The translations under genes and the position numbers were made by a program. Positions 4,495-6,288 of a DNA stretch of 22,135 nt are shown in pieces. The stretch is from a virus. The stretch lies in the UHGV virus genome UHGV-0094927, one strand, 5' to 3'. Every line of letters begins with the position of its first letter. The first letter of the stretch is position 1. Under the pieces are notes generated by a model that saw nothing but the letters and a program-made list of their open reading frames with translations, had not been told where the DNA came from and did not search any database.

Positions 4495-6288
4495 TCAGTT
4501 ATCATTAAGGCCTGTATTTGCCATGGCTGTATAAACTGTCCTTCCAGACCCTGTCTGCCCTACCACTCCTGGTACACCTACGAAACTGTTGCCAGTTATT
4601 AACCATGCAAGGTTATCGTTGGTGTTAAAGTTTATCCCTCCAGTGCATGTATTCCATCCGCCAGTGACTTTCTGGTTACCGAAAAAATTACCATTCACAG
4701 TAACATTACGACAATATTCTGCTTTTATTGCATAACCGTTGCAACTACTGAATTGGTTATTACCCATTAATAGATTCTGCACGTCATAGAGGTACATGCA
4801 TTCCTGACCGGCGAAATGGATAACATTGGAGTTAAAGCTAAGTCCCAAAACCTCTGTTGCACGTATTGCTGGAGTCCCTGACACTCTGCCTCCAGAGAAC
4901 AGGCTGTTTGTGATAGTTCCTACCGCCACTCTGTTAAGGTCCAAGCAATAACCGTCAATATTGTCAATTACGCTATTAGTTATAAATACCGGTAATCCCC
5001 GAGAATCCGCCCCTGAATCTAAAGGTCGGTGTGTCGTTGACTTTATGCCGTAAGGTCCGTAAAACATCGAAGTGCCTACTAGTCTCAAATCGGCAACATC
5101 AGTTATATCTATAGGGGACCTGACCATATAGCAGTCGATAAAGGCTGGCCCCTCGTTAATAGGAAATGTTGGTGATACACTGGCCTCGTTTATTGTGGTC
5201 ATACTGTCGATTAATACGCAGCCATTCCAAGTAACCCAGTGTAAATCTGATGCGTAAATCGGTGCCTTGTAAAAACCGCACTTATCAAATTTAAATAGAC
5301 TCGCATGTTGCAGTGATATAGCCGCATTGCTGGGGGTAGAGCTTGAGTCATTACTAAAATGAATGCGCTCGAACACTGTATTTTCAGCCCAAGAAGATGC
5401 ACTCCCGGTGTTGGCGAAGAACACCGTGGCGTCCGCATTTATATTTTTGTTTCGCCAGAATGTTTTAGCGCCACCGCTGCCGATGAAATGCATAGACGGC
5501 TTGATGACGCATGGAGGTGTAAAGTAGTAGCTTCCGTACTGAAACTCTATCGATCGACCTTCATATAACTGTGCGTTAGCCAGGATAGGAGAATGATCTA
5601 AACTCTGATCTTCAGATTTGCCACCGAACCATTCAATTATAACATGACTACCTGCGCCACTTCGTACCCAATATACAGATGGGGAAGCAGACGAAATAAA
5701 TACTCCATCATCATCTGTGTAATTCCCTGATACAGCTACGAAAACACCACCACCTAACAAACCACGTCCTGTGGTGTGCTCCTTCACCATGACCTTATCA
5801 CCTACAGATGGTGCTACATCCCGTAAATTTGATATTTCGGCATATTCACCTATGAGATTCAGCCCGTATTCACTACACAGATTATCATAACTAACGGCAC
5901 CATTAACTAAGTTTACGCCGCCCTGTGAAGACAAATCCTGTCGTAACTGATCAGGGTCATACTTCAGCACATTAGGAAAATAGAACTGCTGCGCACCGTA
6001 CGTATCATAAACAGCCATCGAATGACCTTGCACAGTTACGAACTTGGCAATCTGTCCGTTATATACAGGGTAACCAGCAGAGTTAATAATGATTGGTTGC
6101 GAAACAGGAATGTGAGAGCCGTCTTCGTTCTCTACATAAACCTGAATCTGGTTTTCAGGATTTGTCGGGTCAGTGTCAATTTTACCGATATAAATTTTGC
6201 CATTGGCAACCGCTTTAAAAGAACGCGCCATAGTGAAAAGTTGCGAAGGCATACTCACTACAACATTGGCATTTATTGAATCTGTCAT
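4495..6288 (-). CDS. Tailspike protein: conserved P22-family N-terminal head-binding domain fused to a divergent receptor-binding (probably O-antigen-cleaving) domain
   Basis: 597 aa. The first ~110 aa ([59 protein letters not shown]...[12 protein letters not shown]...NVLKYDPDQ) match the P22 gp9 N-terminal domain as I recall it. The remainder is Gly/Asn/Ser/Thr-rich, consistent with a beta-helix, but not recognisable as the P22 endorhamnosidase. ATG at 6288 with GGAG upstream. Confidence 0.88.

Follow-up and report, generated by a model that had tools for sequence, protein, structure and literature searches.

A tailspike joining a P22-type head-binding domain to a TSP3-like receptor domain, with an O176/O18-type O-antigen as its most likely receptor

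Which surface polysaccharide does the tailspike of a P22-like phage use when only the part that attaches it to the particle resembles the classical spikes? The question is raised by virus genome UHGV-0094927, a stretch of 22,135 nucleotides (nt) referred to in its entirety as the window, in which a tailspike gene is convergent with a set of putative O-antigen modification (gtr) genes (Table 1). A reading made from the sequence alone had proposed that the P22-like portion of the spike comprises roughly 110 residues, that the rest is a beta-helix, and that the host O-serotype is unlike those of the classical models; it had left the strand of the gene unstated, which is minus. Comparison of proteins, DNA and predicted structure showed that the tailspike is a domain swap, in which a P22-type anchor is followed by a different receptor domain. 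An O-antigen built from Man-Man-Man-HexNAc units (Man, mannose; HexNAc, N-acetylhexosamine), of the Escherichia coli O176/Salmonella O18 type, is its most likely receptor.

The anchor was matched by the Pfam family Head_binding (PF09008) at residues 4-114 with an E value of 1.1e-64 and profile coverage of 3-113 out of 113. Among all PDB sequences, Sf6 gp14 (623 amino acids, aa) matched residues 1-123 only and P22 gp9 (667 aa) residues 2-116 only; the E values of these matches are well outside what chance would give. The phmmer alignments of the window spike to the spikes of P22, Sf6 and HK620 type ended at residues 116-128, and no homology between the receptor domains was detected by this search. 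Identity within the head-binding domain was 88% to Sf6 gp14 and 66-71% to P22 gp9 in Foldseek alignments, and 88% to HK620 gp9, whereas no sequence similarity to the three spikes was detectable past residue ~125. The boundary placed near residue 110 was thus borne out, as was the remark that the 597-aa spike is shorter than its classical counterparts (623-710 aa), the P22 and Sf6 lengths agreeing with their PDB chains. Of the PHROGs families, phrog_7173 ('tail spike protein') matched over the full length (E 7e-265), whereas most others listed cover only the N-terminal ~120-150 residues and a few reach residues ~222-237.

The site at which the two parts were joined was located by comparing the window spike with its best 120 homologue clusters. 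Twenty-nine of these matched from residue 1 to residues 128-140 only, at 85-93% identity, and continued into unrelated C-termini, resulting in total lengths of 550-746 aa; many E. coli prophage spikes belong to this N-terminal-only group. Another 21 matched the C-terminal part only, most of them from residues 107-115, and carried it on N-terminal anchors of widely differing length, and 19 were full-length relatives of 72-98% identity, all 596-597 aa long. Six C-terminal-only clusters were 92-96% identical from exactly residue 115 to the last residue, and cluster P0011, a 686-aa protein with a PF18668 N-terminal domain, was 96% identical to the window receptor domain. At the DNA level, C-terminal homology covered window positions 4497-5922 (93% identity) in a myovirus-like contig of 143 kb with several spikes and baseplate genes (locus L031) and positions 4497-5914 (95%) in a siphovirus-like contig of 58 kb with a tape-measure gene (L032). 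On the N-terminal side, a second P22-like spike, from the second prophage of E. coli GF66.2, matched positions 5936-6300 at 85%. In the protein, resemblance to the N-terminal-only spikes is lost at residue ~118, and resemblance to the spikes of other phage types sets in at residues 115-125. As DNA homology ends at 5936 on one side and begins at 5922 on the other, the junction falls within ~14 nt, in codons 118-123, just past the DPDQ motif. The domain-swap junction that had been proposed was thereby placed on the DNA.

Two other break points were considered and rejected. A second junction near residues 250-310 was discarded because the alignment end points there are graded with falling identity, as expected if the neck and first rungs are distantly homologous. 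A shared half of the head-binding domain with the spike of siphophage FSL SP-031, suggested by an alignment starting at residue 51, was also discarded, as residues 51-110 are gapped and barely similar; the real similarity starts at the DPD-LR motif.

Structure prediction confirmed residues 115-597 as a predicted neck and right-handed parallel beta-helix. In an AlphaFold2 model of the monomer, built on 44 homologues with the FSL SP-031 spike left out, the predicted local distance difference test score (pLDDT) exceeded 90 across most of residues 150-597 and regular short strands of the beta-helix type were observed. When the model was compared with the PDB using Foldseek, the top match was tailspike protein 3 (TSP3, ORF212) of phage CBA120 (E 8e-19, template modelling score 0.59); the Sf6, P22 and CBA120 TSP2 spikes and a variety of depolymerases ranked next. 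A total of 184 matches were obtained at E<=0.001, of which the top ones listed were mostly tailspikes, depolymerases and other beta-helix proteins. Pfam Beta_helix (PF13229) was also matched at residues 434-573 (E 6e-8). Full-length identity to a characterised spike was not found among the matches, and the beta-helix anticipated by the sequence-only reading was predicted.

By sequence, TSP3 (5w6f, 6nw9) was the sole solved relative of the receptor part in a phmmer search of PDB sequences, window residues 211-569 aligning with TSP3 residues 196-553 (E 1.2e-25) and about a quarter of the residues being identical. The receptor domain is therefore not an orphan, as a solved distant relative with mapped catalytic residues exists. 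Beyond the last aligned position 28 residues remain in the window spike versus 74 in TSP3, and no counterpart was found of the C-terminal D4 beta-prism of TSP3 (residues 598-627). The short length of the window spike is thus explained by the lack of the TSP3 linker and D4. The anchors differ as well, that of TSP3 being of the D1/D2 (PF18668) type. In sum, the receptor domain is a member of the TSP3-type glycosidase fold family that has neither the TSP3 anchor domains nor D4.

Within this fold family the window receptor domain is a branch separate from the true TSP3 orthologue carried by the second P22-like prophage of GF66.2. This prophage (L030:8787-14826, at 3.69 Mb of the GF66.2 genome) has an int-gtrA-gtrB-gtrC arrangement with a gtrC product of 495 aa and a 587-aa spike (WP_395763231.1). 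That spike has a receptor domain closely orthologous to CBA120 TSP3 (E 1e-219), the alignment extending through TSP3 residue 625 and taking in D4. It is only 27.5% identical to the receptor domain of the window, which aligns with it only to residue 509 of the 587-aa spike. The two prophages thus resemble each other in their head-binding domain, their int-gtrA-gtrB-gtrC/tailspike layout and their O176-genotype host, but differ in receptor domain and in gtrC, which has no similarity to the window gtr(type). As GF66.2 also carries a window-type spike, one host of O176 genotype holds both branches of the fold family.

In TSP3, Glu362 and Asp426 on adjacent subunits were identified by mutagenesis as the catalytic pair, Asp383 lies in the active-site cleft and is dispensable, and His334 forms a hydrogen bond with Glu362 (PMC6517402). 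Their window counterparts E379, D442, D400 and H350 were all invariant in a 37-sequence family alignment of 33-98% identity. The candidate catalytic acids E379 and D442 were in this way located from the TSP3 alignment. By analogy, the active site should sit in a cleft between neighbouring subunits of the trimer, as in TSP3 and Sf6, whereas the sites of P22 and HK620 are intrasubunit. Trimerisation of the window spike is itself inferred from its family.

The receptor domain was found on podo-, sipho- and myovirus-type genomes, at 92-96% identity on the myovirus-like and siphovirus-like contigs. Its best match in a cultured phage was the spike of the Cornellvirus siphophages FSL SP-031/038/049, 65-66% identical from the DPD-LR motif to the C-terminus. 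The N-terminal ~110 residues of that spike are unrelated and serve a siphovirus tail, and the phages, which were isolated on Salmonella serovar Cerro, an O18 serovar, differ further in being lytic and devoid of gtr genes. The exact window protein is present on at least 20 public contigs, several of them adjoining an intact 385-aa integrase, and in NCBI under the generic annotation 'phage tailspike protein [Escherichia coli]' (EMV6157570.1, HCP4051619.1, MCK2196981.1). Among complete E. coli genomes only GF66.2 and PSS-11 carry the spike, at 97% amino acid identity. Spikes of 86% identity were found in Salmonella subsp. houtenae 18:z36,z38:- and of 75-78% identity in Salmonella serovar Cerro (O18), one variant being present on at least 1000 contigs. 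The named hosts of the family include Salmonella Cerro, Xenorhabdus bovienii, Enterobacter roggenkampii and E. coli.

In order to assign a receptor, the O-antigen genotype of the lysogens was read. In both GF66.2 and PSS-11 the cluster runs galF-GT-GT-manC-manB-wzy-wzx-gnd (GT, glycosyltransferase) with wzx and a frameshifted wzy of the O176 family and with gne upstream. In GCA_025526015.1, contig 18 holds the exact window spike and gtr(type), and contig 58 has a wzx fragment of the O176 family directly upstream of gnd, the two contigs being paired by direct sample identifiers. Hence all three E. coli lysogens with a readable O-antigen locus are of the O176 family, which points to an O-serotype other than the receptors of P22, Sf6 and HK620, as had been predicted. 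The O176 unit is ->4)-aMan-(1-2)-aMan-(1-2)-bMan-(1-3)-aGalNAc-(1-> (GalNAc, N-acetylgalactosamine; PMC8244359), and the presence of gne upstream of galF in the lysogens agrees with GalNAc. N-acetylglucosamine (GlcNAc), given for O176 in a Chem Rev figure legend, was set aside in favour of the GalNAc of the primary study (PMC8244359).

The distribution of the O-unit flippase was consistent with this assignment. The Wzx of the lysogens has only 32 homologue clusters, with relatives in Citrobacter, in Salmonella Cerro and other O18 Salmonella (59%), in X. bovienii (53%), in Enterobacter roggenkampii and its relatives (49%, labelled 'O17/O44/O106 family') and in Serratia odorifera; O77-group E. 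coli and Salmonella also fall within the family. Cerro, X. bovienii and Enterobacter roggenkampii are thus common to the Wzx and spike families. In four Salmonella assemblies the accession numbers of spike and Wzx are <4,100 apart. Such proximity failed as a test of common assembly for pairs of the HFV, HHZ and EHY series and was applied to these four assemblies only.

A different receptor within the same architecture and mechanism would be an antigen of the O77 group, that is, the ->6-linked, GlcNAc-containing backbone of O77, O17, O44, O73 and O106. TSP3, the only characterised relative, confers infection of E. coli O77 by CBA120. The O77 unit is ->6)-aMan-(1-2)-aMan-(1-2)-bMan-(1-3)-aGlcNAc-(1->, and O17, O44, O73 and O106 are glucosylated O77 forms made by prophage gtr genes (PMC7685785), so that the diversity of this group arises by the kind of gene found beside the spike; the Enterobacter hosts of related spikes also have flippases of the 'O17/O44/O106 family'. 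The three readable lysogens are however O176 and not O77 in genotype, the Salmonella relatives occur in O18 and not in O6,14 serovars, and the far closer TSP3 orthologue in the second GF66.2 prophage (E 1e-219) sets the window spike on a different branch. We therefore consider an O77-group receptor unlikely. The Man-Man-Man-HexNAc unit is common to O77 and O176, and the receptors of TSP3 and the window spike are probably of the same chemical family, the host genotypes pointing to O176/O18.

The gtr(type) gene next to the tailspike encodes a protein that is visibly hydrophobic in its N-terminal two-thirds, and the position and size (596 aa) are those expected of a serotype-specific gtr. No Pfam or NCBIfam family matched the protein; in PHROGs it was matched only over residues 285-596 and only by 'unknown function' families. 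Neither megablast nor sensitive blastn found the gtr(type) DNA in 5,426 complete E. coli genomes, and the host range was for this reason taken from the protein database, where only 17 homologue clusters were found. Its relatives are from E. coli (98%), Salmonella including Cerro (73-74%), Enterobacter roggenkampii (60%) and X. bovienii (56%). The suggestion that the gene is novel thus holds in so far as it is rare and unannotated, but not in so far as it recurs in Salmonella Cerro, Enterobacter and Xenorhabdus. Many of the Cerro copies are recorded as 410-aa partials (P0177, 532 members).

The convergence of gtrA-gtrB-gtr(type) with a spike of the window family recurs in Cerro (L016) and X. 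bovienii (L015). Relative to the window, the receptor domain and gtr(type) are both 75% identical in Cerro, and 70% and 56% identical, respectively, in X. bovienii. On these sequence comparisons gtr(type) co-travels with the receptor domain across three genera, their identities running in parallel. Such a pattern agrees with what is usual in P22-like phages, where the prophage modifies the antigen that its own spike uses.

A putative O-antigen modification gene is not the only one observed beside spikes of this family. In the GF66.2 (L001:6546-7898) and PSS-11 (L013:4771-5898) prophages an 'O-antigen polymerase' gene fills the gtrABC slot; NCBIfam gave no match for the GF66.2 prophage polymerase or for the window tailspike. 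The chromosomal O176-family wzy is a frameshifted pseudogene in both GF66.2 (L012:7955-9285) and PSS-11 (L014:22486-23816), and these prophages may cause seroconversion by polymerase replacement. In an Enterobacter roggenkampii prophage (L018:7828-9093) the slot holds a 421-aa gene, 53% identical to the prophage polymerase.

Degradation of a capsule or exopolysaccharide such as colanic acid, rather than of O-antigen, would also be compatible with a beta-helix. The spike has matches to phrog_8280, 'tail spike protein with colonic acid degradation activity', to the SEN22 spike and to the exopolysaccharide enzyme WceF, and in one study TSP3 made halos on mutants without O-antigen. These matches however cover residues 2-132, 4-257 and 8-236, respectively, and none reaches the catalytic beta-helix. 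In addition, the spike gene is accompanied by a gtr operon predicted to modify O-antigen or, elsewhere, by a prophage gene for an O-antigen polymerase, and the distribution of the spike follows one O-unit flippase family. A capsule or exopolysaccharide substrate is accordingly judged very improbable.

Taken jointly, the results are best explained by a tailspike of a P22-like temperate podovirus with a swapped-in TSP3-like domain, an O176/O18-type substrate and a paired gtr conversion operon, an account that we hold to be likely. Residues 1-114 would plug the spike into the tail machine, the short DPDQ-LRQDL linker would be the recombination joint, and the beta-helix of residues 115-597 would recognise and cleave the host O-antigen with E379 of one subunit and D442 of the next as acid/base pair. 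The substrate would consist of alpha-Man-(1-2)-alpha-Man-(1-2)-beta-Man-(1-3)-alpha-HexNAc units of the E. coli O176/Salmonella O18 type, which is akin to the O77-group antigens. Once the phage has become a prophage, gtrA-gtrB-gtr(type) would glucosylate this same O-antigen and change the serotype, and further adsorption by phages with window-type spikes would then be blocked. Direct observation covers the architecture, the junction, the invariance of the catalytic residues, the occurrence of the spike family and the O-antigen genotypes of the three lysogens, along with the fold as predicted; what the account adds to these is the trimer geometry, the enzymatic activity, the exact substrate and bond, and what the gtr genes do.

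Several points weigh against this account. The function of the window spike and its close relatives was read from sequence comparison. TSP3 is a remote relative, with ~27% of residues identical in the comparison with the TSP3-type spike and 18-21% when aligned by Foldseek, so that the specificity of TSP3 is not transferable to the window spike. The AlphaFold2 model is weak for the head-binding domain and linker, with pLDDT <50 at residues 1-23 and 87-146, and since it is a monomer, the proposed inter-subunit active site rests on analogy. The parallel divergence of receptor domain and gtr(type) may reflect physical linkage of adjacent genes alone. The Salmonella O18 repeat unit is assumed to resemble that of O176 on the basis of the Wzx homology of 59%, and the unit itself was not used as evidence. 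In the first TSP3 paper halos were also obtained on O-antigen-deficient O157 mutants, so that the substrate of TSP3 was itself once ambiguous. Lastly, the integrase is fragmentary in this contig and the prophage may therefore be immobile.

Table 1. Features of the tailspike and gtr loci in the window.
Feature	Coordinates	Strand	Basis
gtrA	1287-1649	+	Pfam GtrA_DPMS_TM on identical locus L003
gtrB	1646-2578	+	Pfam Glycos_transf_2 on L003; NCBIfam matches
gtr(type), GtrC-like membrane protein, 596 aa, convergent with tailspike	2562-4352	+	Position, homologue clusters
10-bp GC-rich hairpin with T-rich tail, between convergent gtr(type) and tailspike	4361-4383	+	Terminator scan, sequence
Tailspike gene, 597 codons and stop, ATG start	4495-6288	-	Open reading frame list
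Receptor-binding part, aa 115-597	4498-5946	-	phmmer to TSP3, AlphaFold2, Foldseek
Codon D442, equivalent to TSP3 catalytic Asp426	4963-4965	-	Alignment, position check, family alignment
Codon D400, equivalent to TSP3 Asp383	5089-5091	-	Alignment, position check, family alignment
Codon E379, equivalent to TSP3 catalytic Glu362	5152-5154	-	Alignment, position check, family alignment
Codon H350, equivalent to TSP3 His334	5239-5241	-	Alignment, position check, family alignment
Junction/linker, aa 115-122 LRQDLSSQ, after DPDQ motif (aa 111-114)	5922-5946	-	Ends of protein and DNA alignments
Head-binding (particle-attachment) domain, aa 1-114	5947-6288	-	Pfam PF09008, Sf6/P22 matches
GGAG ribosome-binding site, 8 nt 5' of tailspike ATG	6297-6300	-	Read from sequence

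The surroundings of the tailspike gene are those of a P22-type prophage. An integrase fragment is followed by gtrA, gtrB, gtr(type), the convergent tailspike and P22-type virion genes, namely gp16 (with an SLT domain), gp20, gp7, needle, gp10, gp4, coat, scaffold, portal and terminase. The window DNA is 100% identical to metagenome scaffold ERZ28662504 scaffold_495 (L003) and to a Logan contig (L009), and the domains P22_gp7, Inj_translocase, Phage_P22_gp16, P22_Tail-4, Phage_stabilise, P22_CoatProtein and P22 scaffold were identified among the neighbours on L003. The tailspike gene lies directly downstream of the gp7/gp20/gp16-type ejection genes of this module. This order, the domain-swap logic and the pairing with putative O-antigen conversion genes beside the integrase are shared with P22, Sf6 and HK620. 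By its head-binding domain, predicted beta-helix and gene position the window spike is of the P22-type tailspike class, although its receptor domain is outside the P22, Sf6 and HK620 families. The virion genes have a GC content of 0.50-0.54, the tailspike one of 0.43-0.46 and gtr(type) (window 2501-4500) one of 0.31-0.33, which suggests separate foreign origins of the two cargo genes. The hairpin after the gtr(type) stop is a perfect 10-bp palindrome, ACTGGCAGCA-GCA-TGCTGCCAGT, located 112 nt downstream of the tailspike stop, and is probably the terminator of the gtr operon, as judged from its sequence.

That the tailspike gene is a decaying remnant of a defective prophage and yields no working spike is scarcely credible, for although the integrase open reading frame of the window (50-682, plus strand) is a fragment, its 210 aa aligning at 97% to residues 78-251 only of a 372-aa integrase, and the L003 flank differs from the argW site of the other loci, the tailspike frame is intact and of the standard family length of 596-597 aa seen in four genera, its catalytic residues are invariant, the identical protein recurs beside intact integrases and the neighbouring virion genes are all intact. 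The left end of the window prophage is nevertheless rearranged or decayed. In L003 the integrase fragment adjoins Mn-catalase/DUF892/KGG genes and not the yfdC-tRNA-Arg (argW) site, while other public contigs carry the gtr-tailspike module at 98-99% DNA identity at the yfdC/tRNA-Arg site of E. coli, where the adjoining integrase (385 aa) is intact. The int-gtrA region of the window is 96% identical to that of the second GF66.2 prophage and not to that of the prophage with the matching spike.

Mosaicism within the operon of the tailspike extends to the gp16-type ejection protein. In the window (6453-8846, minus strand) it has 797 aa and an N-terminal SLT lytic-transglycosylase domain at residues 7-110 (E 3e-25), and its homologue in L004 has 639 aa and no SLT domain. 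The gap between the tailspike and gp16-type genes also varied. In GF66.2 (L001:9828-10286) and PSS-11 an HNH endonuclease gene is inserted there, in Salmonella Cerro Arc/Mnt-type immI genes occupy it, and in the window, which lacks the HNH gene, it is 164 bp long (6289-6452).

Exchange of tailspike receptor domains was already known, as were the exact protein in NCBI and its full-length PHROGs family; new here are the precise junction, the predicted catalytic residues, the reasoned receptor assignment and the co-travelling gtr family. The window spike is thus one more well-delimited case of modular receptor-domain exchange, of which the principle is not new. Its practical value lies in a concrete receptor assignment, a mannose-rich O-antigen of O176/O18 type, for spikes that occur as one family in E. 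coli, Salmonella Cerro, Enterobacter and Xenorhabdus. The results are also useful for chimeric spike design and for reading gtr-driven O-antigen variation that is invisible to genome-based serotyping. A bolder proposal, which we put forward tentatively and at somewhat less than even odds, is that the receptor domain and gtr(type) form a serotype-converting system for Man-Man-Man-GalNAc O-antigens, those of E. coli O176 and Salmonella O18. If true, no endoglycosidase for this antigen would have been identified before the window spike, whose architecture would be minimal in having no C-terminal domain. The gtr operon would then make a glucosylated form of O176 that the typing scheme does not include, and it might underlie the extra O factors that depend on phage in Salmonella group K. 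The prophage-borne polymerase and broken host wzy associated with the sister prophages would then represent an alternative route of conversion.

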